Of a stretch of DNA of 64,000 nucleotides, positions 22,852-53,180 are shown in pieces. This stretch comes from an uncultured Alphaproteobacteria bacterium (GTDB taxonomy: Bacteria > Pseudomonadota > Alphaproteobacteria > RF32 > CAG-239): positions 47,224 to 111,223 of the forward strand of contig CAKQKH010000002.1 of NCBI GenBank assembly GCA_934248075.1. Reading direction: 5' to 3'. The notes under the pieces are model-generated. The model saw only the letters and a program-made list of their open reading frames with translations, was not told where the DNA came from and searched no databases. The translations under genes and the position numbers were made by a program. How positions within the stretch are numbered: the first letter of the stretch is position 1; each line of letters begins with the position of its first letter.

Positions 22852-23138
22852 GAAGAATGCACACTCTAACTTCTCCCCTTGATTTCAAGGGGAAGACAGA
22901 GAGGGGTTTAAAAATAGCTGTCACCGCTCCGAGGGGCGAACATTCTCGCCCGAGGTCAAGCGGTCTTCCGTGCTGATAATACAAACTAACAGCATGGAAG
23001 ATGCCTGGACTTTGCGGAAGAATACACACTCTAACTTCTCCCCTTGATTTCAAGGGAAGACAGAGAGGGGTTAAAAATAGCTGTCACCGCTCCGAGGGGC
23101 GAGCATTCTCGCCCGAGGTCAAGCGGTCTTCCGTGCTG
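22852..23138. repeat. Two direct copies of an about-120-bp palindromic element (family A), each followed by a short hairpin element (family B)
   Basis: Copy 1 at 22852-22975 and copy 2 at 23018-23138 are near-identical. Each carries internal inverted repeats (ccccttgatttcaagggg and gggcgaacattctcgccc). The B hairpin gatgcctggactttgcggaagaat recurs at 22997 and 23162. Confidence 0.85.
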
Positions 23139-23225
23139 TCAATCGATATTATCAGTTCGGTAGATGCCTGGACTTTGCGGAAGAATGCTTCCGCAAAGAG
23201 GCATGACAGAGTCTTTTTTATTGTC

Positions 23226-23309
23226 ACTCTGAGTGAACCGAAGCAATCCATATTGTTGCTTGATAAAAATGGATTGCTTCTCACGGCTGACCGCCGTTCG
23301 CGCAATGAC
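23226..23309. repeat. Hairpin repeat element (family C)
   Basis: A 12-bp stem gaagcaatccat / atggattgcttc around attgttgcttgataaaa. Further copies lie at 42694-42776 and 45397-45490. Confidence 0.85.
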
Positions 23310-23338: not shown

Positions 23339-24088
23339 TTAGAAGGACAGGGTTTTGGCCAATTGTGAGGTATAAAAATTTCGCAGACGGTGAACATAGC
23401 CAGTATAGTTAACAAGTTTATATGCAAGCCAATCTTCGACACTCCCATGAAAAACCGCTACAACAAAGTTATAATAGTCTTGCATTTTTTGCAAATCATC
23501 AACTTTATATTTGCCATTAGGACGTTCAAATTGACCCGTCATCATATATTTGATTTTTTCAACAATATCCTGCGCCCGGGCAATTACTTTTTGGGCATCT
23601 ATCTGGCTCATATCTTTATGCTGTGGATAAATCAGCCACTTATCATACAAAACTGAATATTGCGCCAAATCTGGCACTTTTAATACAATTTTGATTTCCA
23701 CCTGACGCCCAGCAATACGATACTTACGCTGATGATCCAAAAAAGCATTACGAACCTTACCTATAAACTGAAATATTTGCTTATTACTTTTAAAAACGCC
23801 GTTATTTTCAACTATAGAAACAACTATTTCTAGATCCAAATCTGAAAACTCCTGATATTCATAAGTAGTGGAAGAACCAAACAAAACAATATCATCAACC
23901 TGCAACCACGGAAAATCCTTGAGACAACCGTCAATTACGACCTGCGCACGCATCAAAAGTTTTTGCCGAATCTCCGGCAGCATTTGGTGGTTAGCATCAA
24001 ACACACGGCTGTCAAGTTCCTGATGCGAGGTCATCAGCCACTTGATATTTTCTTCCATGGTCTGCTGGCGAGGATTGACGTTTAGCAT
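23339..24088 (-). CDS. Pol-beta-superfamily nucleotidyltransferase (KNTase/ANT/Lnu-like architecture)
   Basis: Canonical motif LFGSSTTYEYQEFSDLDLEIVV (hG[GS]...DxDxE) followed by a helical C-terminal region. Its ATG overlaps the upstream stop as ATGCTAA. Confidence 0.7.
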   Translation of the reverse strand: MLNVNPRQQTMEENIKWLMTSHQELDSRVFDANHQMLPEIRQKLLMRAQVVIDGCLKDFPWLQVDDIVLFGSSTTYEYQEFSDLDLEIVVSIVENNGVFKSNKQIFQFIGKVRNAFLDHQRKYRIAGRQVEIKIVLKVPDLAQYSVLYDKWLIYPQHKDMSQIDAQKVIARAQDIVEKIKYMMTGQFERPNGKYKVDDLQKMQDYYNFVVAVFHGSVEDWLAYKLVNYTGYVHRLRNFYTSQLAKTLSF

Positions 24089-24849
24089 TGCTCTAACTCA
24101 TTAATATTATAGTTATAAGATTCGATCAGGAATTTTTTGAAATATCTTTCACCGCCAAGCTCACAAAAAGTACGATAAAGCAAATAATCAAAATTATATT
24201 CATGCTCGTCGCTGTCCAACCAATATTTGCGGGCTTCCGAACGGAGATATTTAAGATAAGCTTCCAGCTGGTGGCAGCCTTCTATGGTAAATTCACCGTT
24301 AGGATGACGGGAATGAGATTCAACATTTTCACGGATAATCTGCTGATAACGCGGAAAAACCATGCAAAACTCCGGCATAGTGAAAGCAAACTGACGTTTG
24401 ACAGGCGGATTCAGCCAACGCTGGTGAATAATTGAAAAACAAGGAATTCCTTGAGGAACGTCAGCCAAAAAATGGCAATGAACCGGACGATTGATAAAAG
24501 TGTAAGGAATTTCGGTCGCTTCCAGAATATCATTAATCTCGGAAAGGTTGGCCTGCAACGGCTCAGGTAAATCATTATAGATCAGACCAACATATACAGG
24601 ACTAAAACGATTATAAACATAACCAGCCAGATCACCATACAACACCACGTCTGAGGCCTTTTGCCAATTTACCAAAGGGCGGTTTTCACCCCACCAAAAG
24701 TTGGCAATATTTATTATCCCAGATTTGAAAGTATCATACAATGTATCCGGTGATGAAAACACCACCGGACACAAGGTGTCATTAATGCGAACATGCTCGC
24801 CGATATCTATTGATTCAAACTTTATTGGCTGCATTAGCTTTAGTAACAC
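24082..24849 (-). CDS. Nucleotidyltransferase-like paralogue with degenerate catalytic motif
   Basis: Segment SDVVLYGDLAGYVYNRFSPVYVGLIY aligns to the NTase motif of the downstream gene, but GS has become GD and DLDLE has become PVYVG. Alternative ATG start at 24834. Confidence 0.55.
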   Translation of the reverse strand: MLLKLMQPIKFESIDIGEHVRINDTLCPVVFSSPDTLYDTFKSGIINIANFWWGENRPLVNWQKASDVVLYGDLAGYVYNRFSPVYVGLIYNDLPEPLQANLSEINDILEATEIPYTFINRPVHCHFLADVPQGIPCFSIIHQRWLNPPVKRQFAFTMPEFCMVFPRYQQIIRENVESHSRHPNGEFTIEGCHQLEAYLKYLRSEARKYWLDSDEHEYNFDYLLYRTFCELGGERYFKKFLIESYNYNINELEQC

Positions 24850-26084
24850 TTACCATTATAACACGTTTGGTTGCCTGTGCATGTAACGCTCTCACAAGGG
24901 TCGCCACCGGTTGAACCACCTGATGAGCTACCTCCTGATGAACCACCTGATGAACTACCGCTTATCTTAGTGGGCGTTATTGAAAATGATGCTGACATGC
25001 AACTATCGTCAGCTGTACAGGTTTTAACTAGGTCATCAGCATAGGCCTGACAAACGGTGGATAATTCACTAGATGTATAATTTGTAACATCCGTTGGACC
25101 ACAGGGTGCTACATAGTCATCGTAGCAGGTATTGTCAGGAAACCAATAGCCATCTGATTGTGAATAGACAGTACTGGTATACTGGGAACGACATTGATCA
25201 CGAATGGTTTTTGACCGGCAGTCTTTATAACAGGTTACACCACTAACAGTGATTTTTGCGCAATTATAATATCCCGTGTCTGAACTCAGGTATCCGGCAT
25301 CGGCGCAAACATCTTTGGCTTTGCCGGCATAAATAAAGATATTGGCCGAATAGTTCTGAGGAGTAACCGTGGTTGATTTGCCATAGATAGAATTTGATTT
25401 ACTAGCATCGAAATTAATATACACAGAATTGGCGCCTTTTGTGTGTCCTTTACCATAATTATCGCCTTTGGGTGATATACTGAAAGCCCCAGAAATATCT
25501 CCACTGTAACTATACTCCGGTCCTTGCAAACCTACTTTACCAGTAATATTGGGCAAGCCGGCGGCTTGCGCGCTACGAAACGCTGATTGAATTGTAGTCA
25601 CACTTGTTGTCTCTATTGCAGCACCTTTTAAGAAGTATCCCGAATATGAAGGAACGGTGTTTTTTCCTAATAACTTATATAAATCGGAATAAAGAGTTGT
25701 ATCAAATGATTGACCATTACACAATAACCAGCCATCATGATTTTTCGCTTTCCATGAATACTTCAGATCACCAACAGCATGCTGAGGGGCAAGACACATG
25801 CCAAATGTCGGCTCAAAGGGACACGGAATAAATGTATCTGAGCACCTAGTCTTTTGTGTGCTGTAACCCATAGACATACATTTCAAAACACCATCCTGGC
25901 AGTTATATTTGGTATCATCAAAGGGGCAGCGGGTGAATATTTTTCCCTCACATTGAGACGCGGTTTTGGTGTATCCCAAAGTGGCACAGTCAGGGGCAGC
26001 AGTGCATTCCTGTTCCTGAGCTTGGCTGGGCAGGGCGTATATCAATGCCGGAACGGCGGCAGAGGCTAATAACATATTTTTCAT
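24840..26084 (-). CDS. Secreted cysteine-rich protein with a phage tail-collar (MdpB-like) domain
   Basis: Signal peptide MKNMLLASAAVPALIYALPSQA. Central region GWLLCNGQSFDTTLYSDLYKLLG...VTPQNYSANIFIYAG matches the tail-collar pattern W.LCdG...Y..Lf..iG. C-terminal GSSSGGSSGG linker followed by a Cys knot. SD aaggggaaaag. Confidence 0.65.
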   Translation of the reverse strand: MKNMLLASAAVPALIYALPSQAQEQECTAAPDCATLGYTKTASQCEGKIFTRCPFDDTKYNCQDGVLKCMSMGYSTQKTRCSDTFIPCPFEPTFGMCLAPQHAVGDLKYSWKAKNHDGWLLCNGQSFDTTLYSDLYKLLGKNTVPSYSGYFLKGAAIETTSVTTIQSAFRSAQAAGLPNITGKVGLQGPEYSYSGDISGAFSISPKGDNYGKGHTKGANSVYINFDASKSNSIYGKSTTVTPQNYSANIFIYAGKAKDVCADAGYLSSDTGYYNCAKITVSGVTCYKDCRSKTIRDQCRSQYTSTVYSQSDGYWFPDNTCYDDYVAPCGPTDVTNYTSSELSTVCQAYADDLVKTCTADDSCMSASFSITPTKISGSSSGGSSGGSSSGGSTGGDPCESVTCTGNQTCYNGKCY

Positions 26085-26119
26085 TTCTTTTCCCCTTTAT
26101 AAATTGGTTGGCAAATCCC

Positions 26120-26956
26120 CTACTTGACAGACCAAGTACAGAGTTGTTTGTTTTGGCAGATAAATTTGGTTTTATGATAATAACCGATATTACATTTGAC
26201 AAAGCGGTAATGAACCGTGGTATCACCACAGCCTTTGACGCAGGTTTCATATTGAGAGTTGGCCGGAGCGGAGTTTAAATCGTACTCCGAGCAATCTTTA
26301 GGCGTACAGGTTTTACCCTGTTCGCACTTGGAAGGGCAGTCGGCATAATATTTCTCACAACCATACTCAGTTGCGTTATCAGTCAGGGCATCACACGCCT
26401 CAACGCACTCGTTGCATTTTGCCGCGCAATTTGGACAAGGCGTTTTACAGCCATATGTGCAGGTTAAGTCATTGCAATTTTGGCTCAGGCAGGCGTCGGT
26501 AATCGGGGTCTCGCACTTGGCGGGGCAGTCATCCCAATATTTTTGACAACCATAATCAACAGATAGATTATCAGTGCGATTGCGACAATTATCAGTATAG
26601 GGAATCTCACATTTGGTTGAGCAGTCATCCCAGGTCTTTTGACAACCATAATCGGAATCGTGTTTGACGTCTGTACGCAAAGCGCAGGGTTCGACACAAC
26701 CACTGACACACCAGCCGACACCGGAGAAAAAATGTTTTTTAGAGCAGACCTGACCAGAGGCTGCCGAGGCGGAAAACCATCCGGAAGGACACTTGATGTC
26801 AGAATCAGAATCACGGCCGCCGGCGTTGCGATCCATGTTTTTGCCCAAGAAATCAGGCAACCAATAAATTTTGGCTGACACAGTGCCGACGACAAGCATA
26901 CAGCCCAACACCGTTAATATGCAGATATACTTCCGCATCGCGATGACTCCCATCAA
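26120..26956 (-). CDS. Secreted cysteine-rich repeat protein
   Basis: Signal peptide MRKYICILTVLGCMLVVGTVSA. The probable start is the ATG at 26937 or 26953, not the TTG at 26956. Three repeats of [DE]YGC[QE]K[TY][WY]xDC[SP]xKCE. More than 40 Cys residues. Confidence 0.6.
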   Translation of the reverse strand: MMGVIAMRKYICILTVLGCMLVVGTVSAKIYWLPDFLGKNMDRNAGGRDSDSDIKCPSGWFSASAASGQVCSKKHFFSGVGWCVSGCVEPCALRTDVKHDSDYGCQKTWDDCSTKCEIPYTDNCRNRTDNLSVDYGCQKYWDDCPAKCETPITDACLSQNCNDLTCTYGCKTPCPNCAAKCNECVEACDALTDNATEYGCEKYYADCPSKCEQGKTCTPKDCSEYDLNSAPANSQYETCVKGCGDTTVHYRFVKCNIGYYHKTKFICQNKQLCTWSVK

Positions 26957-26965
26957 AACTTGTAA

Positions 26966-27001
26966 CCTATTTTAGAATATCAGGCTACGCGCATGTTGTC
27001 A
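26966..27001 (-). promoter_or_regulatory. Candidate sigma-70 promoter of the Cys-rich/NTase operon
   Basis: On the minus strand: TTGACA, a 17-nt spacer, then TATTCT, about 10-30 nt upstream of the first gene. Confidence 0.35.
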
Positions 27002-27041
27002 ACGCGGAAATGATTACATTTATGTTACATAAAAACTAGCG

Positions 27042-28334
27042 CTAGTTTTGTTTGTCGGCAAAGAGCTTTTTGGCCTTGTCAACCAAGCCGTCATCTTGCG
27101 CCAAAGTCGGGAAAACATGAGTCGGCGAGGCCGGAACCGGATCGGTCTTGGTGATTTCCAGATATCCGGTTTGCGGACGAAACACAATATTTTTGAAAGC
27201 ATACAGCACAAACAATCCGCTGAAAAAAGAAAAAGACAACACAAAACTGATGGCGCCCCATTGCTGCATGGCAAAAGAAACAATAATCGGCCCGCCCATC
27301 ATGCCGATGCTTTGCAACAAAATCAGTTGGCCGCTGGCCTCTACCCGCTCGTCATCGGTGATTTTGTCATTGAGATGCGAGATGCAAATCGGATAAAGCA
27401 CAAAAGTGCCGGCGCCAAGCAAAACCGCGCAACCAGACATCAGCCATACGCCGCTGTCAATAAAAAACTGCATCCAAGGCGCGACCACAAACAAAGCGCC
27501 GCACAGCCACATCATGACAAAACGGCGGTCAAACTTGTCAGAAAGGCGGCCAACCGGTATCTGCGCCACCATGCCGCCCATAATGCAGAAAAACATAAAC
27601 AAGGCCGTGATGTTGATGTCTAACCCCATCTGATCGGCATAAATCGGACCAAGCGTGTAAACATTGCTGACCAAGATGCCGCTGATGATACAGCCGACAA
27701 CGCTCATCGGTGCAAGTTTGTATGCGCGGCGCAAAGACATATGCTTATGCTTGCGGATTGGCGGGGTGGGCTTGCCGGTGAGACTAACCGGCACCAAAGA
27801 CCAGGAATACAGCACCGAAATGATTATAAACACCATAAAACCGCCGGGGTCAGGAATATTGAGCATTAGTTGGCCGCCCGCCATGCCCAAATAAGTCATG
27901 ACCATGTAAACCGACATAATCACACCGCGATTTTGATTGTTGGAACGAGTGTTAAGCCAGCTCTCCAAACACATTAGCCCAGCGGCGATGCAATAGCCCT
28001 CGGCAAAACGCAACAACGCCCAAAACCATGGCGCCGAACTTATGGTGTGCAACAGCACCATGGACGAGAGAATCGAAATATAACCGGCAAAAGCGCGGAC
28101 ATGCCCGACTTTGTTTATAATCCGCGAGGAAGTGAGCGACGAAACAATATAAGCAAAGTAATAAAACGCCATGACAATGCCGGTATAAAAAGTCGGAGTG
28201 TGCTGAGCATTGAGCCGCACCGCCAGAATCGATGTATTTAGACCACTGGCGACATACATTACCAAAGTGCCGATGAAAAACGCAGCTAATGGCGACAGAA
28301 GCTTTTCCGCGGCTTTTAGTCTTTTGATAAACAT
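27042..28334 (-). CDS. MFS transporter
   Basis: 12 predicted TM helices. 430 aa. Confidence 0.85.
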   Translation of the reverse strand: MFIKRLKAAEKLLSPLAAFFIGTLVMYVASGLNTSILAVRLNAQHTPTFYTGIVMAFYYFAYIVSSLTSSRIINKVGHVRAFAGYISILSSMVLLHTISSAPWFWALLRFAEGYCIAAGLMCLESWLNTRSNNQNRGVIMSVYMVMTYLGMAGGQLMLNIPDPGGFMVFIIISVLYSWSLVPVSLTGKPTPPIRKHKHMSLRRAYKLAPMSVVGCIISGILVSNVYTLGPIYADQMGLDINITALFMFFCIMGGMVAQIPVGRLSDKFDRRFVMMWLCGALFVVAPWMQFFIDSGVWLMSGCAVLLGAGTFVLYPICISHLNDKITDDERVEASGQLILLQSIGMMGGPIIVSFAMQQWGAISFVLSFSFFSGLFVLYAFKNIVFRPQTGYLEITKTDPVPASPTHVFPTLAQDDGLVDKAKKLFADKQN

Positions 28335-28379
28335 GAGTATTGCGCTCCCATTCCGGCTCAGATTAAGGAAAAAACAACA

Positions 28380-30107
28380 TCAGGCAGCTTTGAGCATGGC
28401 CTCAGGCGCCTCTATACCTAAAAGATACAGATTAAGTTTTAAGATATCCCTAACCATTTTGGCCAATCTGAGCCGCGATGCCGCCTTGGCCTGATCAGCC
28501 TCGCTCAGAATCGGCGAAGTATTATAAAAACCGGAGAAAACCTGCGCCAGATTATAGACATAATCAGAAATTATGCTCGGCTCTTTTTCGGTCTCGGCAC
28601 GAGCAACCATAGTGCCAAACTGGGCAATTTTGAGCGCCAAATTACGCTCCTCAGGGTTGGTGATGATGATATTGCCCTCTGCAAGGCCATTATCATGCGC
28701 CTTACGGAGAATCGAGTTAATGCGAGCAATGGCATATTGAATATAAGGTCCGGTCTTGCCCTCAAACTTGGCAAAGTCATCAAGCTCAAACACATAGCCG
28801 GAAGCGATGTTGTTTTTGAGATCCTGAAATTTGATAGCGCCGATAGCAATCTGCGACACCATTTTTTCGATATCTTCATGGGTGTATCCCTCAGCAGCAG
28901 ACGGAATCGACTCTCTGACCTTGTCTTTGGACAGATTAATCAGGTCCTCCAGGTTCATCACGCCGCCGTCGCGAGTCTTAAACGGCTTGCCGTCAGCACC
29001 GTTGACCGTGCCAAAACCAATATGCTTAAGCGTGACATTTGGGGCGATGCCAAGTTTGTCGGCGACCTCAAACACCTGCTCAAAATGCAGCGACTGCCGC
29101 TTGTCCACCACATAAATAATCTCTTGCGCCTTGAGGTCATCAACACGCATTTTGATAGTGGCAATATCTGTGAGCTGATAGCCAAAACCGCCATCGGACT
29201 TGACCAAAATCACCGGAGGCTTGGAATCATCAGCCAAGCGCATAATCAAAGCGCCGTCATCAAGCACGGCCAGACCTTTGTCTTTGGCCAACTCAACAAT
29301 TTTGCCGCAGGTTTCATGGGCGTCGCTCTCGCCCAGCCAAAGGTCAAAATGCGCGTCTAAAACATCATAATTTTTCTTGATAGCCTCAACCGAAACCTTG
29401 CGCAGATGCTGCCAGGCCTTGCGGTATTCGGGGTTGCCGCCTTGCAGTTCGGCCGTAATCAGACGAGCTTTTTCTTTGGCGACGTCATCTTCTTTGCAGC
29501 GAATATTGGCTTGTTTATAAAAAGCGGAAATCTGGTTGATATCATAGCTCTCGGTCTTAGACAAATCACCGTCTTGGTTGATAATTTCAGACAGAATCAT
29601 GCCCATGGGAGTACCCCAATCACCAAGGTGAACGTCTGAAACAACCTCATTGCCGACAAAATTTTCTATCCGGCGGACAGACTCGCCAATCACGGCCGAA
29701 CGCAGGTGTCCGACATGGAGAGCCTTGGCGACATTTGGCCCGCCAAAATCCATGACAATTTTGCGCGGAGCAACGGTTCTGGCCGCGCCAAAGCGCTCGT
29801 CTGACGCGGTCTTATCCATAAATTTGGCGATAAAATCATCTGCCAGAGAAATATTAAGAAAACCAGGGCCATCTACCGATATTTTGGCCAAATCCGTGTC
29901 TTTTTGCAACTCAGCGGCAATATTGCCGGCTATTTCACGCGGATTTTTGCGCTCGCTCTTGGCCAGAGCCAAAGCGCCGTTGCACTGAAAATCACTCAAA
30001 TCAGGGCGATCAGATACTTTTACAAAAGCAAATTTAGGATCCAAGTTTAATGTCGCAAAAACTGCAGCCAATTTTTGGTTGAGGGTGTTCTCTAAAGATA
30101 ATGACAT
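28380..30107 (-). CDS. argS: Arginyl-tRNA synthetase
   Basis: HIGH-type motif ALHVGHLRS and a DALR anticodon-binding C-terminus. Confidence 0.95.
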   Translation of the reverse strand: MSLSLENTLNQKLAAVFATLNLDPKFAFVKVSDRPDLSDFQCNGALALAKSERKNPREIAGNIAAELQKDTDLAKISVDGPGFLNISLADDFIAKFMDKTASDERFGAARTVAPRKIVMDFGGPNVAKALHVGHLRSAVIGESVRRIENFVGNEVVSDVHLGDWGTPMGMILSEIINQDGDLSKTESYDINQISAFYKQANIRCKEDDVAKEKARLITAELQGGNPEYRKAWQHLRKVSVEAIKKNYDVLDAHFDLWLGESDAHETCGKIVELAKDKGLAVLDDGALIMRLADDSKPPVILVKSDGGFGYQLTDIATIKMRVDDLKAQEIIYVVDKRQSLHFEQVFEVADKLGIAPNVTLKHIGFGTVNGADGKPFKTRDGGVMNLEDLINLSKDKVRESIPSAAEGYTHEDIEKMVSQIAIGAIKFQDLKNNIASGYVFELDDFAKFEGKTGPYIQYAIARINSILRKAHDNGLAEGNIIITNPEERNLALKIAQFGTMVARAETEKEPSIISDYVYNLAQVFSGFYNTSPILSEADQAKAASRLRLAKMVRDILKLNLYLLGIEAPEAMLKAA

Positions 30108-30126
30108 AGTTCTTCCTTAAAATATA

Positions 30127-30444
30127 TTATTTTTCACACTTAAAATAAAAATGATTGGGAACCAAAAGACGACAGGTGAAATATGTCTGTCTTACCGGAG
30201 TGGCATGAGTGCCGGTCTTTTCGCTGATACAAACGTCATCGGCCAGCTTTTTGACATCGGCATATGGCGTGTACAGACTATTGTAGCATACCGCAGGCTC
30301 CGTTGGCGTGGAGGCTCCGACATATAACGTTGCCGGCGTCTTGGCTCCGGCCTCTCGTCGTCGGTCTATAAACGGACGAAACTGCGAACAAGCGCATAAT
30401 AAAGATATAAGTACCGCAATATTTATTAATTTGAGGCTGGACAA
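30127..30444 (-). CDS. Small lipoprotein, hypothetical
   Basis: Lipobox LLCAC after a signal peptide. Confidence 0.45.
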   Translation of the reverse strand: MSSLKLINIAVLISLLCACSQFRPFIDRRREAGAKTPATLYVGASTPTEPAVCYNSLYTPYADVKKLADDVCISEKTGTHATPVRQTYFTCRLLVPNHFYFKCEK

Positions 30445-30508
30445 TTAAAAAAACTCCGCTAATTTATTCTGTAACAATTGTTCAACACTATAAACTAAGA
30501 AGCACAAA

Positions 30509-31102
30509 ATGCAAGAAAACAAATATATCGGCGATGAAAAAATGACTAAAATGCTGGAACACTACCAATGTTCCACCCCTTTGGAGGTAGTGAAAATGCG
30601 GTTTGCCGGCGCAATCTGCAGCCCTAATATGGAGCTGCGGCCAACCGATGTCATATCTTCTTTGTGGCCGGCCGGACAGGCACCCAGACTGCAAACCAAA
30701 GACGAGGCCGACTTGTTCTTCAAGTTCTTTATGGGACTGTGGGACGCGATGTTTGACCAGATTCAACACAATAAAATTAAATTAGACAAACTGCCGGCCA
30801 AAGACTTGGAATATTATTGCCAGCGCCGTTTTGCCGAAATTGAACAAGGCTATATTGAGGGATTCTGGGGCGGCAAATCCGATATGAAAATTCCGGCGTT
30901 TTTGGCAGAGGTGATCGACTCTTTGTCAGATTTGGCCGGAGTGTATGGAAGTCTGCTGAAAAAAATATCGGCCGGCAGCGATAAATCAGAAGTGATCAAT
31001 GCCTTGAGTTCAGCCGACTCCATGGCGGAAAAAGCGATTGCGTTTATTATCGAAAACTCGGTATTGCCGCGGATAGAAAGCCTGCGACGCACCGTCAACT
31101 AA
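30509..31102 (+). CDS. UPF0149/YecA-YgfB-like family protein
   Basis: Size (197 aa) and helical pattern resemble UPF0149. Weak evidence. Confidence 0.4.
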   Translation: MQENKYIGDEKMTKMLEHYQCSTPLEVVKMRFAGAICSPNMELRPTDVISSLWPAGQAPRLQTKDEADLFFKFFMGLWDAMFDQIQHNKIKLDKLPAKDLEYYCQRRFAEIEQGYIEGFWGGKSDMKIPAFLAEVIDSLSDLAGVYGSLLKKISAGSDKSEVINALSSADSMAEKAIAFIIENSVLPRIESLRRTVN

Positions 31103-31155
31103 ATCAAGCCGGCAAACAGTGAGCAAAACTTGCGAATTTTCTTGAAAATATCTAA

Positions 31156-32247
<1,092 letters not shown>

Positions 32248-32310
32248 TTATGGAATAAGCAAACCCTCTTGGCGCGCCAAGGGGGTTTTGTTTTTGCAAA
32301 GGATAAATAA

Positions 32311-33522
32311 ATGACTGAATATAAAACAATTAAAGATTTGGGCGATTTGCAGGGCAAAGTTGTTATGCTCCGCGCCGATTTGAATGTTCCAATGGACGAG
32401 AATTTTCATGTTACCAACACCGCGCGTATCGTTCGCACGGTTCCGACCATCAAAACCTTGATGGACAAAGGCGCTAAAGTTGTGGTGATTTCTCACTTTG
32501 GCCGTCCGGAAGGCAAAGGCGATATGAAAAACTCCCTTTCTCACGTTGCCCCCGAGCTGGAAAAAGCTTTAGGCAAACATGTTGTGTTTGTAAATGACTG
32601 TATTGGCGCTGAAGTTGAAAATGCAGTGAAAAATATGAACTCTGATGAAGTTTTGCTACTGGAAAATCTGCGCTTTTACAACGAAGAAAAGAAAGGCGAT
32701 GAAAACTTTGCCAAAGAATTGGTAAAACCTGCCGATGTATATGTTTCTGATGCTTTTTCAACCGCGCACCGAGCTCATGCCTCTATGGTTGCGGCGGTTA
32801 AAGAACGTCCGGCAGCCATGGGTTTGCTGATGGAAGAGGAAGTTAATGCCTTGTCTAAAGGATTGAACAATCCGGAACGCCCGCTGATGGCTATTGTCGG
32901 CGGCTCCAAAGTTTCTACCAAGCTGGATTTGCTCAACAATCTGGTTAAGAAAGTAAACAAACTGGTAATTTCAGGCGGTATGGCTCACACCTTTATGAAA
33001 GCCAGCGGAATCGACACCGTTAACGAGGCTAACTCTTTGGTGCAAATGGATATGCTGGATACGGCCAAAGAGATTATGGCCACAGCCAAGGCCAATAACT
33101 GCGAGATTGTTTTGCCGGTTGATGTTGTGGTTTCTAAAGAATTCAAACCAATGGCCGAGCATAAAACTGTTGATTTGCAGCATATACCGGCTGAAGGTTG
33201 GAGCCTGCTTGATGTTGGCGAAAAAACCATTGCCGCGATTTGCGCCAAACTGGAAGAATGCAAAACTTTGGTTTGGAATGGTCCCTTGGGCGTGTTTGAG
33301 ATGAAACCGTTTGACAACGCCACCAACAAAGTTGCCGAGAAAGCAGCCGAATTGACAGAAGCCGGCAAACTGACTTCAGTAGCAGGCGGCGGTGACACCG
33401 TTTCGGCTCTGGCGAATGCCGGTGTTGAGAAGAAATTCTCTTATATTTCCACTGCCGGCGGTGCTTTTCTGGAGTGGATGGAAGGCAAAGAACTTCCGGG
33501 TGTAGTGGTTTTGAAAAAATAA
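32311..33522 (+). CDS. pgk: Phosphoglycerate kinase
   Basis: 403 aa with typical PGK motifs. Confidence 0.97.
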   Translation: MTEYKTIKDLGDLQGKVVMLRADLNVPMDENFHVTNTARIVRTVPTIKTLMDKGAKVVVISHFGRPEGKGDMKNSLSHVAPELEKALGKHVVFVNDCIGAEVENAVKNMNSDEVLLLENLRFYNEEKKGDENFAKELVKPADVYVSDAFSTAHRAHASMVAAVKERPAAMGLLMEEEVNALSKGLNNPERPLMAIVGGSKVSTKLDLLNNLVKKVNKLVISGGMAHTFMKASGIDTVNEANSLVQMDMLDTAKEIMATAKANNCEIVLPVDVVVSKEFKPMAEHKTVDLQHIPAEGWSLLDVGEKTIAAICAKLEECKTLVWNGPLGVFEMKPFDNATNKVAEKAAELTEAGKLTSVAGGGDTVSALANAGVEKKFSYISTAGGAFLEWMEGKELPGVVVLKK

Positions 33523-33589
33523 GCTTCACCACCAAAAATACCTGCCAATCAAAACATTGGCAGGTATTTTTTTGCACAGTTTCCTATTC

Positions 33590-35014
33590 TTATAGTTTGG
33601 CAATAGCGCTATCAATACGGCGCAAAGTTTCTTTTTGCCCCAAAATCACGGCGATTTCAGTAGCCCCGCCAGGGGTTGTTTCTTTGCCGCTCAGAGCTAT
33701 GCGAGCCGGATATAGAACCTGTCCGTTTTTAACGCCCAATTTTTCAGCCAAAGCTTTAAGACTGGCAAAGAGCGCGTCGTTGCTCCAATCTTGTTGAACG
33801 GCCAGCACCTCACGGATTTCCGGCATTACGGATTTGGCAACCGCAACATCAGTCTTCATTTTTTTGTTGACGTATAAATCCAGACTATAATCCGGCAAAG
33901 CACGAATAAAATCTGTCTGCTCGGCAATTTGGCCAAAAGTTTCAACTCGCGGCTGCAGAGTATGGCTAAGCGCCTCTAAATTAACCTCTTCCGACATATC
34001 CTGATAATAAGGCATAGCCAGCTGATGAAATTTTTCCGGAGTCAAAGCGCGGATATAGCACCCATTCATCCAAGTGAGTTTGGTAATGTCAAAAATTGAC
34101 GGTGAGCGGCTTAAACGCTCGATTGAAAAGACTTTTTTGAGGTCATCAAGCGAAAAAATCTCTTCTTCGGTACCAGGGTTCCAGCCTAAAAGAGCTATAT
34201 AGTTAATGATTGCTTCCGGCATATACCCCTTGGCCACCAAATCCTGAAAAGAGGCATCGCCATTGCGTTTGGAAAGCTTGTGTTGAGCATCTTTCATAAC
34301 CGGCGGAACATGAACATATAATGGGTGTTCCCAACCAAAATCTTCATAAATCAGATTATATTTAGGTGTTGATGATATATATTCATTGCCACGAACAACA
34401 TGAGTAATAGCCATGAGGTGATCATCGACAACATTGGCAAAGTTATAAGTCGGAAAGCCATCTGACTTGAGCAAAACACCCTCGTCCAACTCGTCATAAT
34501 CAATCTCGATATCGCCATATACTTCATCATGATACTTAGATTTGCCTTCTTTGTTGATAGTCTGACGAATAACATAAGGCTCGCCGGCCGCAACACGTTT
34601 TTTGGCCTCTTCCAACGGAATTAATTTGCAAGGATCTTTGAATTTGATATTCAGTTCCTCATTTTTCTCTTCATCGGCGTCTGATTTGGAGCAGAAGCAA
34701 TAGTGCGCGCCGCCAAGTTCCACCAGTTTGTGGGCATATTCGGCGTATAACGGCTTGCGCTCAGACTGAACATAAGGACCATAATTGCCGCCGATGTCCG
34801 GCCCCTCATCCCAGTTCATACCCACGGTTTTGAGGGTATTATAGATAATCTCGGTTGCCCCTTCGACATAGCGTTTTTGATCAGTGTCTTCAATACGCAG
34901 CAAAAAGTCACCGCCATTGGCTTTGGCAATCAGATATTCATACAGCGCCGTGCGCAGATTACCGATATGCATATATCCGGTCGGTGACGGAGCAAAACGA
35001 GTTCTAACTTTCAT
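33590..35014 (-). CDS. gltX: Glutamyl-tRNA synthetase
   Basis: HIGH (HIGNLRTAL) and KLSKR motifs. Start set at the ATG preceded by SD gagga (35014), not the upstream ATG at 35035. Confidence 0.93.
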   Translation of the reverse strand: MKVRTRFAPSPTGYMHIGNLRTALYEYLIAKANGGDFLLRIEDTDQKRYVEGATEIIYNTLKTVGMNWDEGPDIGGNYGPYVQSERKPLYAEYAHKLVELGGAHYCFCSKSDADEEKNEELNIKFKDPCKLIPLEEAKKRVAAGEPYVIRQTINKEGKSKYHDEVYGDIEIDYDELDEGVLLKSDGFPTYNFANVVDDHLMAITHVVRGNEYISSTPKYNLIYEDFGWEHPLYVHVPPVMKDAQHKLSKRNGDASFQDLVAKGYMPEAIINYIALLGWNPGTEEEIFSLDDLKKVFSIERLSRSPSIFDITKLTWMNGCYIRALTPEKFHQLAMPYYQDMSEEVNLEALSHTLQPRVETFGQIAEQTDFIRALPDYSLDLYVNKKMKTDVAVAKSVMPEIREVLAVQQDWSNDALFASLKALAEKLGVKNGQVLYPARIALSGKETTPGGATEIAVILGQKETLRRIDSAIAKL

Positions 35015-35082
35015 TTTTCTATCCTCAAAGTTCATAAAATTTGGCTCTTACATTAGCGCAAAAAAGAAATTTGGCAAGAGTT

Positions 35083-36747
35083 TTATGCGCTCAGCAAGAC
35101 ATCAGCGGCAGCGCGGGCTTCGGCCGTAATTGTGGCGCCGGCCAACATGCGGGCTATTTCTTCCCGACGGCTTTGGTTATCAAGGGCAAACACGGCTGTA
35201 GTTGTGATATTGTCTTTGGTGCTTTTTTCCACCTTAAAATGTTGACGTCCCTGAGCGGCAACCTGCGGAGAGTGCGTAACCACCAAAACCTGCACCCGTT
35301 GTCCCAAACGAGCCAACCTCTCACCAACCGCTTGAGCCGTGGCGCCGCCGATACCGGCATCAACCTCATCAAATATCATTGTGGCAACCTGCGAACTCCG
35401 AGCTAAATTTACCTTGAGCGCCAACATAAAACGCGCCAACTCGCCACCAGAGGCGATTTTTGCCAACGGCCCTTGAGGAGAATTAGGATTGGTTGAAACC
35501 GTAAACGCAATATTGTCAAACCCATGCTCATTCCAACCCGCTTCGGATTGTTTTTCTACCATGGTGATAAAACGAGCCTTTTCCATTTTTAGCGGAGGAA
35601 GTTCATGCATAACCGCAGCATCTAGTTTTTGTGCGGCATCAGCACGAGCTGTATGCAAACTACCTGCCGCCTCCAAATAAGCCAGCCGTTTTTCCTGCTC
35701 TATTTTGCGCAAATGGTTAATACCGTCTTCACCAAGTTCAATACTGTTGAGGCGATGACGAAAATCTTCTAAAACATCAGCCAAATCATCAACGGCAACT
35801 CCGTGCTTACGCGCCAAATCTTTAAGCGCAAACAGCCGACTATCAATGTTTTCCTGCTCATTAGAGTTTAGACTGATATCTGCCGACGCGCTCTCTATGC
35901 GCTCTACGGCGTCAGTGAGTTCAATCAGCGAGCGATCAAGAGCGGCGTAAATATCATCGTATTTGCCGTCAACATATTGGTTGGCTTTGTCAATAGCGGC
36001 TTCTGCTTGCCGCAGCGCCGACGAAACATCACGATTGCCGCTCAAAGCCTGATAAGCGCTGTTGAGACTCTCAACAATTTTTTCAGCGTGCATCAGCTCC
36101 TGACGGCGAGCGGAAAGTTCGGCCTCCTCGCCCTTAACCGGATTAACTCGCTCCAGCTCGCGCAACCAATGGCGCAGATTTTCTTCTTCGGCTTTTGACT
36201 TATCCAAATCAGTCTCGGCTCTGGCGCGTTCTTGTTTGGCTTTGGAATAGTCCTCCCAAGCGGTGGCGACCTGATTAAGCAACTGAGGATATTGTCCCCA
36301 AGTGTCTAATATATTTCGATGATTTAGCGGATTCAGCAACCCCTGATTGTCAAATTGCCCATGAATTTCCACCAGCAACGCCCCGACATCTTTGAGCAAG
36401 CGAAGGCTTGTCGGCTGATCGTTGATAAAAATTTTACCTTTGCCGGAGCGTTCAAGGGTGCGCTTGATAATAATCTCATCTCCGCCATCCAGCTCATTGT
36501 CGGCCAACAATTTTTGCAACGGCTGATTGGTGATTTGGCCGTCAAAAACCGCGGTAACGCTCAATTTGTCCTCTCCGGTGCGGATTAGCGAAGTCTCAGC
36601 GCGATTGCCAAGCACCAACCCCAGGGAATCCAACAAGATAGATTTACCGGCTCCGGTTTCTCCGGTTAACACGCTCAGCCCTTCGCCAAACTCCAAATCA
36701 AGCTTGTCAATCAGAACCACATTGCGAATAAAAAGCGAACGAAGCAT
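35083..36747 (-). CDS. recN: DNA repair protein RecN
   Basis: Walker A GETGAGKS, a central coiled coil and a C-terminal ABC signature. Confidence 0.93.
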   Translation of the reverse strand: MLRSLFIRNVVLIDKLDLEFGEGLSVLTGETGAGKSILLDSLGLVLGNRAETSLIRTGEDKLSVTAVFDGQITNQPLQKLLADNELDGGDEIIIKRTLERSGKGKIFINDQPTSLRLLKDVGALLVEIHGQFDNQGLLNPLNHRNILDTWGQYPQLLNQVATAWEDYSKAKQERARAETDLDKSKAEEENLRHWLRELERVNPVKGEEAELSARRQELMHAEKIVESLNSAYQALSGNRDVSSALRQAEAAIDKANQYVDGKYDDIYAALDRSLIELTDAVERIESASADISLNSNEQENIDSRLFALKDLARKHGVAVDDLADVLEDFRHRLNSIELGEDGINHLRKIEQEKRLAYLEAAGSLHTARADAAQKLDAAVMHELPPLKMEKARFITMVEKQSEAGWNEHGFDNIAFTVSTNPNSPQGPLAKIASGGELARFMLALKVNLARSSQVATMIFDEVDAGIGGATAQAVGERLARLGQRVQVLVVTHSPQVAAQGRQHFKVEKSTKDNITTTAVFALDNQSRREEIARMLAGATITAEARAAADVLLSA

Positions 36748-36765
36748 GTTGGTCAGAAGTCCTTT

Positions 36766-37491
36766 TTAAAGTTTTTGGGCGCGTTTATACCATTTGCTGT
36801 CGGGATAATTATAGCCCAGAACTTTTAAGCTGGTTTCGGCTTCTTTATCCAAACCCAAAATTTTGTACAGCTCCACCTGACGGTATAGGGCTTCTTCAAT
36901 ATGTCCGGTGGTCTGATAATGATTGACCACCTCTGAAAAACGATTCAGCGCCGACAAATAGTTCTTTTGCTGAAGATAAAAACGCCCGACCTCCATTTCC
37001 TGTCCAGCCAAATGGTCGTTAATCAGGTTGATTTTGCGGCGGGCATCAGCGGCATATTCGGTATCGGGAAAGCGAACAATCAGTTGATTAAAGGCATCTA
37101 GAGCTTCGCGGGTTGACTCCTGATCTTTTTCGATGCCGACAATCTGCTCATAATAGCATAATCCTCGCATATAATACGCGTAGGCAATGTCTTTGTTGCC
37201 GGGGTGATATTTAATAAAACGCTCAAGGCTCATAATTGCGTCATCATATTTTTGGTCTTTGTAGTAGGCATATGCTCCCATCAGCTTGGCCTTGGTCGCC
37301 CATTTGGAATAAGGGTGCTCCAACTCAACTTTTTCAAAATTAGCGGCGGCTTTGGCATAAGCGGTCTTGTTTAATTCTTTGTAGCCGCGGTTATACAACC
37401 TCTCGGCCGAAAGTACTTCGTTGGTGTCTTTGGTGGAAGAACAAGCTCCAAACAGCAAAACGCAACTTAAGATCAGCACAATTTTTTTCAT
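36766..37491 (-). CDS. bamD: Outer-membrane protein assembly factor BamD (TPR lipoprotein)
   Basis: Lipobox LLFGACSS and TPR repeats. Confidence 0.8.
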   Translation of the reverse strand: MKKIVLILSCVLLFGACSSTKDTNEVLSAERLYNRGYKELNKTAYAKAAANFEKVELEHPYSKWATKAKLMGAYAYYKDQKYDDAIMSLERFIKYHPGNKDIAYAYYMRGLCYYEQIVGIEKDQESTREALDAFNQLIVRFPDTEYAADARRKINLINDHLAGQEMEVGRFYLQQKNYLSALNRFSEVVNHYQTTGHIEEALYRQVELYKILGLDKEAETSLKVLGYNYPDSKWYKRAQKL

Positions 37492-38377: not shown

Positions 38378-38782
38378 TTGACAAGGTGCCTATAAGCCGG
38401 GTTCTGTATCCTGCAAAGCAGGACGATAGCCATTCATCTAGGCTGCTTATTACTAAGTAGCTCAACGCGACCTACCTCTGGAGCGGAAGGAGAACATTCC
38501 GTTTAACACAGTTTATTCAGCCCAAAAGCCAAATACTTGCGCCCTCCTAACTTGGTCTTGCATCAAACAGGGTTTACCCTGCCAAAACCGTTGCCGGTTT
38601 TGCGGTGGGCTCTTACCCCGCCTTTTCACCCTTACCGAAAACGTATTTCGGCGGTATATTCTCTGTGGCACTTTCCCTTGGATTACTCCAGCCGGACGTT
38701 ATCCGGTGTTTTGTTCCCCTGAAGCCCGGACTTTCCTCACCGCGGGCAACGCCACGGCGCGGCTATCCGGCCACCTTGTCGT
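38378..38782 (-). ncRNA. rnpB: RNase P RNA (bacterial type A)
   Basis: The minus strand carries GAGGAAAGTCCGGGCT (P4 5' strand), AGGGTGAAAAGGCGGGGTAAGAGCCCACC and ACAGAACCCGGCTTAT (P4 3' strand). Termini pair as P1: GACAAGGTGG / CACCTTGTC. Confidence 0.88.
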
Positions 38783-52984: not shown

Positions 52985-53180
52985 GTATAGAAACTGCGTA
53001 GTGCGTATTTCCGCAGATCTTCCGAGCCAACATATTTTTATAGGGAGCTGTTCCTGAATAAATCGTGGTTTATTTATACGGCACCCACCTGATCGCAAGC
53101 GGTTCGATAAGAATGTATCCATACGGCTAAATGGTTTCACTTTTATAAACCTCGTTGACTTCAACGAGGTTTTCTTTTAT
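52985..53180 (+). ncRNA. ssrS: Candidate 6S RNA (ssrS)
   Basis: A 240-nt non-coding gap immediately downstream of zapA, which is the conserved position of ssrS in proteobacteria. It ends in a strong terminator. The 5' and 3' segments show partial complementarity. Ends were not determined. Confidence 0.3.
53146..53178 (+). terminator. Rho-independent terminator
   Basis: Stem ctcgttga / tcaacgag followed by ttttctttt. Confidence 0.8.

Follow-up and report, generated by a model that had tools for sequence, protein, structure and literature searches.

A largely hypervariable module of gut Alphaproteobacteria in which genes for exported cysteine-rich proteins precede a dead and a live nucleotidyltransferase-fold paralogue

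Several described systems share single traits with the locus analysed here. In KNTase, an obligate dimer, each active site draws on both subunits. GtfA/GtfB, which act on serine-rich-repeat adhesins, and HMW1C, which acts on HMW1, are cytoplasmic enzymes that modify a co-encoded exported adhesin before its export, and GtfA/GtfB is itself a pair of one active and one inactive paralogue. In the type VII toxin-antitoxin (TA) system MntA/HepT, a minimal nucleotidyltransferase (NTase) neutralises its partner protein by AMPylation. Here we describe four minus-strand genes, A to D, in a 64,000-nucleotide stretch (the window) of contig CAKQKH010000002.1 from an uncultured alphaproteobacterium, in which two genes for exported cysteine-rich proteins are followed by a dead and a live NTase-fold paralogue. 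An earlier note on this DNA knew of no described system that couples exported Cys-rich proteins to an NTase pair. Our comparison likewise brought up none that matches, and the literature held nothing relevant on tail-collar proteins with NTases, on secreted tail-collar bacteriocins or on Cys-rich proteins of gut RF32.

The most striking property of the locus, which the earlier note missed, is a hypervariable mosaic cassette that runs within one species from B (after its N-terminal module) through C and D. On comparative evidence the coupling of A to D is real, conserved and undescribed, and the function we put forward for the module is a prediction.

Gene products and their packing

The features of the locus are as follows.
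Gene A, open reading frame (ORF) as called: 26120-26956, minus strand.
Gene A from its preferred start: 26120..26938, minus strand, 272 aa, Sec-exported, 12% Cys.
Gene B: 24840..26084, minus strand, 414 aa, Sec-exported, with a Collar domain.
Gene C, ORF from an alternative GTG start: 24082-24849, minus strand.
Gene C from its preferred start: 24082..24834, minus strand, 250 aa, dead NTase-fold paralogue.
Gene D: 23339..24088, minus strand, 249 aa, intact pol-beta-type NTase.
Promoter-like site: 26974..27002, minus strand, -35 TTGACA, 17-nt spacer, TG-extended -10 TATTCT (consensus scan).
Hypervariable mosaic cassette: 23361..26000, minus strand, B from residue ~30-60 onward, C in full and D almost to its end.
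Downstream boundary: 22846..23280, no strand, two ~165-nt tandem palindrome-bearing repeats and a hairpin.

The ORFs and spacings agree exactly with the four tightly packed genes that the earlier note had described. A and B are separated by a 35-nt gap, with AAGGGGA 5′ of the B ATG; B and C overlap by 10 nt if C begins at the GTG or leave a 5-nt gap if it begins at the ATG; and D starts on the C stop in a 7-nt ATGCTAA overlap. Spacing in orthologous modules is 35-40 nt for A-B, 3-19 nt for B-C and -7 or -1 nt for C-D and, where further NTase units (D2, D3) follow, 6-7 nt for D-D2 and -8 nt for D2-D3. Because the same spacing is found in every orthologous module, such tight packing is far beyond chance. 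Going by its orthologues too, gene A most likely starts at the ATG at 26938 (MRKY...) rather than at the TTG at 26956, since GGGAG lies 7-11 nt upstream, the signal peptide begins there and the earlier residues are dispensable. For gene C, the ATG at 24834 (MQPIKF...) is the most likely start rather than the GTG at 24849, because it matches the N-termini of C orthologues.

A carries a Sec-type signal peptide, 33 Cys (12%), three YGC(Q/E)K.(W/Y).DC..KCE repeats and an N-terminal motif (KIYWLPDFLGKNM), and has no match in Pfam, NCBIfam or PDB. It is 97-99% identical between strains of the window species and 46-48% identical to its orthologues in loci L089, L093 and L097. B also has a Sec-type signal peptide (residues 1-22) and contains 24 Cys, so that both proteins are of the secreted Cys-rich kind that had been read from the letters. 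Its domain map, drawn from an alignment of 8 orthologues and alleles, begins with a conserved Cys-rich CxxxGY module (residues 23-62, 26018-25899) and a second CxxxGY module; B holds three CxxxGY...C units. Then come a tail-collar or short-tail-fibre-like receptor-binding region (residues ~104-267, 25775-25284), a Cys-rich C-domain and, at residues 375-414 (24962-24843), a Gly/Ser linker with a 4-Cys tail.

The tail-collar assignment of the earlier note is borne out by Pfam Collar (PF07484; 30.2 bits, cutoff 24), by PHROG tail-fibre families (down to 1.7e-14) and by the short tail fibre 9cuy in PDB (E 1e-8), with phage tail-fibre tblastn matches covering B residues 117-267 only. The Cys-rich modules on either side of the collar match nothing among domain models and structures, and the "eukaryote-like Cys-knot" once suggested for these proteins finds no such domain, by domain models or structure matches, in A or in the Cys-rich parts of B. 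B is not part of a virion or prophage tail module: it has housekeeping neighbours and a Sec signal peptide, and its C-class partner is absent from viral contigs. A role of the NTase as a tail-fibre chaperone was rejected, as no phage locus pairs an NTase with a Collar protein and B is Sec-exported. The linker (20 aa) and four-Cys tail (20 aa, DPCESVTCTGNQTCYNGKCY) end B in the window, L178 and L179 alleles and are not found in the other alleles; a 538-aa Cys-repeat protein at L189 (1505-3121), unrelated to B, ends in a similar Gly/Ser linker and Cys tail.

D has the residues of the canonical NTase that the earlier note had called it (G71-S72, D83-x-D85 and E131, together with K224), followed by a C-terminal helical bundle. 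An alignment of 83 sequences of the D family shows no variation at G71, S72, S82, D83, D85, E131, W151 or K224, and D scores 22.0 bits against the pol-beta NTase model NTP_transf_2 (PF01909; cutoff 21). Going by the NTase fold, K224 presumably binds triphosphate. The AlphaFold2 model of D (mean predicted local distance difference test score, pLDDT, 87) has an NTase core of helix-strand-strand-helix-strand and then a helical bundle; its structural matches are weak and at superfamily level only, and all neighbours other than helical bundles are pol-beta NTases. D is no close homologue of ANT or Lnu enzymes; close homology to such enzymes occurring elsewhere without the Cys-rich genes is what the earlier note had named as fatal to its proposal. 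The NCBIfam resistance models (ANT, AadA, Lnu) give no match at E<=1, and the best Foldseek match is AAD(9) (E 5.6e-3, TM ~0.25), with ANT(4') and LinB at E>0.03. No D homologue was found among 72,556 plasmids, which speaks against D as a mobile resistance gene.

C is a paralogue of D by hhalign (98.3%, E 1.5e-14), and its active site is destroyed as claimed, with GS, DxD and E all replaced. GD stands for GS, SxVxx (SPVYV here) for SDxDL and HC for E; the replacements GD, S(P/E)V(Y/S)(V/L/I) and HC are found in 10/10 C-class sequences. C keeps a basic residue at the K224 position and has invariant residues of its own (His124, Cys125, Cys162, Cys192, His216, Glu217 and the C-terminus SYNYNINELEQC). 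It has no Pfam or PDB sequence match, and its AlphaFold2 model (pLDDT 93.6) has the same two-domain fold as D. By its motifs, C is thus a pseudoenzyme paralogue of D. Neither protein has a signal peptide or hydrophobic segment, and they hold 7 (C) and 1 (D) Cys.

D is likewise neither an MntA nor a CD-NTase enzyme. It scores 22.9 bits against the MntA model NF047752 (cutoff 60), no HEPN family match was obtained for A-D in the Pfam and NCBIfam scans, and no PADLOC CBASS (cyclic-oligonucleotide-based antiphage signalling) model was matched; no effector-type gene adjoins the module, and CdnD and CdnC are only weak Foldseek neighbours of D. A defence system is not supported, since PADLOC gave only sub-threshold PDC-S09 and M62B matches.

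The module has its own TTGACA/TATTCT promoter-like site, as had been noted, at 27002-26974, followed by a 5′ untranslated region (5′UTR) with a GGAG Shine-Dalgarno sequence. By itself, the TTGACA-17-TATTCT site is statistically unremarkable; the -35, -10 and 5′UTR are kept before A-type genes in five other species (L093, L097, L182, L089 and L074), where the surrounding sequence is not kept. The element TGTAACATAAATGTAA, located just 5′ of the -35 hexamer both in the window (27003-27040) and in L074 (upstream of 16374), may be a regulator binding site. Downstream of D we found no canonical intrinsic terminator (22846-23280); a hairpin with a 15-bp stem lies at 23240-23280, and three intragenic terminator-like hairpins are no more than expected from shuffled sequence.

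Conservation, NTase arrays and phage relatives

The gene order is conserved in relatives, a point on which the earlier note had made its case depend: at least seven lineages of uncultured gut Alphaproteobacteria carry the module with the same internal order. The ArgRS beside the module likewise places the window's source among uncultured gut Alphaproteobacteria, a group assigned by GTDB to order RF32. The lineages and their modules are as follows.
Window species: A-B-C-D.
L009: A-B-C-D-D2.
L089: A-B-C-D-D2-D3.
L093-96 and L097: A-B-C-D-D2.
L182: A-B-C-D.
L186/187 (G+C content 32-37%): B-C-D-D2, without A.

In these Collar-type modules C always comes first and is dead, while D2 and D3 are intact throughout. 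Every two-gene (C-D) module has an intact D, and D is degenerate only alongside D2 (SEIEI in L089, DNISL in L093), so that each module keeps at least one intact unit. The module beside ArgRS and the major facilitator superfamily (MFS) transporter gene is absent from most of 80 related species, and no member of the family was found outside the module in 1.36 Mb of related bacterial DNA.

More distant loci extend this picture. At 10/10 bacterial loci with a visible upstream gene, a Sec-exported protein is encoded directly upstream of the NTase array, with gaps of 3-19 nt. The exported protein is of the Collar type in seven loci, a BspA-type leucine-rich repeat (LRR) protein in L183, a Cys-repeat protein in L189 and an A-like Cys-rich protein in L192. 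The related arrays comprise 2-7 units, some of them fused dead+live. For example, P0209 is a natural fusion of a dead C-like and a live D2-like unit and sits 6 nt behind the Sec-signal BspA-type LRR_5 protein of L183. P0191 fuses a live to a dead unit, and P0220 and P0225 are live+live fusions; P0225 ends the seven-unit array behind the Sec-signal 538-aa Cys-repeat protein of L189. This longest array (L189, 3184-8509) consists of five single NTase-like genes and one two-unit fusion, with nearly all catalytic motifs intact. In L192 the A-like protein is followed by two NTase units, and neither the L189 nor the L192 array has a C-class dead unit.

The minimal conserved unit is accordingly an exported protein with an NTase array of 2-7 units. 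Of the four-gene coupled unit proposed earlier, the conservation and the link to inactive and active NTases hold up; the fixed set of four does not, as arrays vary in length and A is dispensable, L186 carrying B-C-D without it. The NTase heterodimer that had also been proposed gains support from the natural dead+live fusions, which point to physical pairing of units; a pairing of C with D themselves is predicted.

The closest other species, L074 (ArgRS 90%), has no NTases in this island and encodes another exported protein there. That protein (13222-16374, minus strand, 1050 aa) is Cys-rich, carries a Sec signal and two Lcl_C (PF07603) domains, and shares with A the promoter, the 5′UTR and the first ~45 residues (KIYWLPDYLGKNM). 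By this likeness, the shared start would act as a conserved "expression/secretion head" for swappable bodies.

D matches phrog_36119 end to end, and a profile search with D returned 575 relatives. The family is mostly phage-borne, and we accept that it is of deep phage origin. Over 400 relatives of D in phages stand alone. At 80/80 viral loci the D-family gene occurs once, and nothing like A, B or C lies within 5 kb of it; among 2.9 M viral contigs (IMG/VR) there is no C-class member. A phage or prophage origin of the module as a whole was rejected on these two grounds, the solitary phage homologues and the missing C-class. On the phage-like contig L180 (1175-9040), a D-family NTase lies amid TROVE/Ro60-like, NADAR, caspase-like, ribosomal S21 and RF-1-domain genes, a context that hints at phage members acting on RNA or translation components.

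Phage NTases that synthesise cyclic dinucleotides and counter STING (BCP1, Av-05) are also pol-beta enzymes with GS...SDxD and have been described as MNT/KNT-related (bioRxiv 10.1101/2022.06.09.495361). Av05_0062, taken as the Av-05 enzyme by that paper's GS...SDxD motif (GSIAYGTNLPTSDVD), was negative against the D family by hmmsearch and hhalign, and membership of D in the anti-STING family was rejected.

Searched in full by HMMER with the C profile, a set of 1.84e9 representative proteins yielded 568 relatives, with the dead C-class making up ~6 clusters only. One partial C-class protein, in the cluster of P0176, is filed under a "Candidatus Gastranaerophilales" metagenome-assembled genome (MAG; MBR3605126.1) and represents either a second gut phylum with the module or a binning error. 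A pattern scan of genome contigs for the D motifs gave no match and a metagenome scan with the C profile only two near-identical loci; the module is therefore rare in those collections.

A hypervariable allelic cassette

We compared metagenome contigs of the window species with the window. In the flanks, strains differ little: ArgRS and MFS show 99-99.8% protein identity, synonymous divergence (dS) is 0.03-0.045 and nucleotide identity 98.4%. Between B residue ~30-60 and the end of D lies a 2.65-kb block in which dS is 1.3-2.4, the ratio of nonsynonymous to synonymous divergence (dN/dS) is 0.15-0.30 and the sequence is mosaic. Identity falls from 98% to 34-65% inside B, somewhere from ~26000, by sliding window, to 25899, where the blastn match ends (after residue ~62), and is back to 97-98% in the last few codons of D; the sequence bounding the cassette is ~98-100% identical between strains. 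Identities to the window proteins are as follows.
L001: B 45%, C 54%, D 59%.
L179: B 70%, C 93%, D 58%.
L006: C 93.5%, D 56%; the contig reaches only the last ~100 residues of B.
L178: B 53%, C 93%, D 90%; the contig is without flanking genes to confirm the species, and its A is only 87% identical.

Saturated dS, dN/dS of 0.15-0.30 and mosaicism identify the block as old, functional, recombining alleles rather than decaying DNA. Purifying selection acts on each of the four genes, whichever the allele (dN/dS 0.07-0.32), and even the C alleles at "93%" are at dS 0.35 (dN/dS 0.12 for L179 C). Alleles are shuffled in L001, L006, L178 and L179. The start of B and the C/D junction are conserved stretches (80-86% identity) and are likely crossover points, to judge from their position. 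B itself changes abruptly from a conserved N-terminus to a variable region, as polymorphic toxins do; its alleles are homologous over their whole length, with no toxin-domain swaps and no recognisable toxin domain.

The ~165-nt repeat downstream of D looks like a dispersed REP/MITE-like (repetitive extragenic palindrome, miniature inverted-repeat transposable element) element at the cassette boundary, and relatives of it also occur in the strain contigs L001 (2374-2453) and L003 (1892-2228). The module's neighbours are housekeeping genes (ArgRS, MFS, GlgP). Relatives have the order GltX-[island]-MFS(-)-ArgRS(-)...PGK (L089, L093 and L074, compared with window 27042-37491). In the window species, which is without D2 and D3, the MFS..PGK block is inverted relative to the module, A adjoins MFS, and GltX, RecN and BamD lie at 33590-37491 (minus strand). 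The 776-aa gene at 20290-22620 (plus strand) has no Pfam domain and is not the orphan it had been taken for: homologues 24-34% identical are present at over 20 loci of related MAGs, frequently close to MFS or ArgRS. Finally, an Rfam scan of the window found class A RNase P RNA (38378-38778, minus strand, 288 bits) and 6S RNA (52988-53141, plus strand, 63.6 bits), both ordinary housekeeping RNAs.

Possible functions and described systems

We tentatively favour, at rather less than even confidence, a mechanism in which C and D form a pseudo-heterodimer that attaches a nucleotidyl group to the exported protein encoded alongside, or to some other variable target, prior to export. The conserved promoter would give one transcript for the exported disulfide-rich A and B and then the translationally coupled cytoplasmic C and D. 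C and D would pair as a pseudo-heterodimer with one active site, for which the dimer architecture of KNTase-type enzymes provides a template, and would transfer a nucleoside monophosphate (NMP) group to a macromolecular acceptor. That acceptor would be the co-encoded pre-protein, modified in the cytoplasm before Sec export; it is the most economical candidate because the bacterial arrays are found only directly 3′ of genes for exported binding-type proteins. The outcome would be a strain-specific surface chemistry, and the divergence of the cassette may stem from long-term balancing selection or repeated allele import, acting on a surface-exposed ligand-binding protein and its modifiers.

A number of observations weigh against this mechanism. 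The C1 allele is found with three B alleles (53-100% identical) and two D alleles, and C alleles ~93% identical to that of the window co-occur with B alleles 53% and 70% identical (~5 haplotypes sampled). Such independent recombination of B, C and D is not expected if the NTases tightly recognise the variable part of B. Annotated phages carry the D relative among replication or RNA-repair-type genes, contexts that hint at a nucleic-acid or nucleotide substrate, and RNA-tailing enzymes (FAM46, TUT7, CutA) stand among the weak structural neighbours of D, along with CD-NTases and ANTs. The seven-unit array of L189 exceeds the needs of a simple modifying enzyme, and we know of no NTase-fold enzyme that modifies a Sec substrate before export. 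Moreover, co-transcription of A-B-C-D is predicted from gene spacing only, and it is genetic linkage that singles out the proposed acceptor among the candidates.

A broader reading, which we hold as rather unlikely, is that the dead/live KNTase-like arrays are a new cytoplasmic machinery dedicated to Sec-exported disulfide-rich binding proteins, for instance for NMP tagging or licensing before export. It might, at a similarly guarded estimate, be a domesticated phage NTase family made hypervariable by balancing selection, and so neither a resistance, TA, CBASS nor toxin-immunity system.

Loci of antagonism offer an alternative that is unlikely and still worth setting out in full. A polymorphic toxin or bacteriocin-immunity locus would export receptor-binding toxins, with the NTase-like array as cytoplasmic immunity. 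The N-terminus of B would then serve export or docking, its variable rest would kill relatives, and strains would accumulate several immunity paralogues, none of which strikes us as probable. It is just as doubtful that immunity would be conferred by binding, through the dead C, or by nucleotidylylation of the incoming toxin, as MntA acts on HepT. Such loci would explain the sharp boundary between the conserved N-terminal and variable C-terminal parts of B and the variable genes downstream, the arrays of 2-7 paralogues, and the ancient, mosaic, maintained alleles, which are typical of frequency-dependent antagonism. An RBP-like (receptor-binding protein) collar would suit cell targeting, and a weak MntA-type similarity is present. 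Yet no toxin domain is detectable by Pfam, NCBIfam, PADLOC or PDB in A, B, the L183 LRR_5 protein or the Cys-repeat proteins, B alleles are homologous end to end, and C does not track B alleles. Orphan-immunity arrays are not known for the constant order that the C, D and D2 classes show from species to species, and a cytoplasmic immunity protein could meet a disulfide-rich exported protein only if the latter got into the cytoplasm.

We find it distinctly improbable that the array is a TA or abortive-infection module, with D (and D2 and D3) as NTase toxins, for example enzymes that nucleotidylylate tRNA or protein like MenT or AbiEii, restrained by the dead C. Its linkage to an exported gene would then come from stabilisation of the island or from phage sensing, with no biochemistry in common, for which we see poor prospects as well. 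The scores of defence and TA models are far under their thresholds and known partners such as HEPN or wHTH are missing, even though the nearest D relatives are phage genes and there are weak matches to PDC-S09 (a PADLOC candidate) and MntA. An antitoxin-like order is seen, the dead C preceding D and ending in a stop that overlaps the start of D; against it, the L189 and L192 arrays do without a C-class dead unit, and a stable fusion of dead and live units in one polypeptide is more to be expected of an enzyme than of a labile antitoxin. Defence loci are typically hypervariable, while the position of the array directly behind an exported gene, at 3-19-nt gaps in 10/10 loci, argues for functional coupling.

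It is very unlikely that the genes have no functional link and simply share a recombination-prone island, with their spacing due to genome compaction. The GltX-MFS locus is indeed a variable island, L074 has another exported protein there without NTases, and B, C and D alleles assort independently. The same adjacency is found, however, in different genomic contexts with three unrelated exported types, the overlap and spacing are conserved, and the family occurs nowhere else in the 1.36 Mb of related DNA.

The antibiotic-modifying NTase island that the earlier note had entertained, with D as an ANT/Lnu-like aminoglycoside or lincosamide enzyme and incidental neighbours, is highly improbable: D resembles ANT(4'), ANT(9), AadA and LinB in size and two-domain layout, and these appear among its weak Foldseek matches, but there is no resistance-model, structural or plasmid support (no NCBIfam model at E<=1, all Foldseek matches at E>1e-3 and TM ~0.2, no plasmid homologue in a mostly phage-borne family), and the dead/live tandem paralogy and the linkage to exported proteins would be left unexplained.

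If the NTase pair does act on the exported protein, nucleotidylylation would join the short list of cytoplasmic modifications of surface proteins before export, and there would be a first functional handle on a family of phage NTases whose members, uncharacterised so far, number in the hundreds. The locus is among the most polymorphic segments seen here in abundant uncultured gut Alphaproteobacteria, with a synonymous divergence 30-50x that of its flanks, and strain-level selection, whether by phage, host immunity or bacterial antagonism, has a natural marker in the cassette. The module is also a clean case of a dead enzyme paired with a live one, with natural fusions in support of the partnership.

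Compared with described systems, D shares with KNTase/ANT(4'), ANT(9)/AadA and LinB a size of ~250 aa, an N-terminal pol-beta domain (GS...DxD...E) and a C-terminal helical domain. It differs in lying outside their sequence models, in matching them structurally only at Foldseek E>5e-3 and TM ~0.2-0.27, and in not being found on plasmids, and C and D differ in being dead/live tandem paralogues behind exported-protein genes. The phrog_36119 proteins (Synechococcus phage DSL-LC03 WJZ48009, Maribacter phages Molly and Colly) are full-length D homologues at 22-30% identity that keep the invariant residues of D (G, S, SD.D, E, W and K); they differ in being solitary in replication, early or RNA-repair-like regions, with a Collar/Cys-rich, C-class or tandem neighbour in 0/80. 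With MntA/HepT, D has in common a weak MntA match (22.9 bits) and weak MNT structural matches. It is far from the cutoff of 60, has no HEPN gene beside it and is twice the size, with a helical domain of its own.

T4 gp12-like short tail fibres and collar receptor-binding proteins (PDB 9cuy) are homologous to the central ~150 residues of B, and phage tail fibres resemble B in having a conserved N-terminus and a hypervariable distal part; B differs by its Sec signal peptide and Cys-rich flanking modules and by being chromosomal and outside any prophage. The closest functional analogy for C·D acting on B may be GtfA/GtfB and HMW1C. These have glycosyltransferase folds and work with accessory Sec or two-partner secretion (TPS) partners, which are absent at the A-D module; what the two share, known here from genes alone, is the genetic linkage of modifier to exported protein and the logic of active and inactive paralogues.

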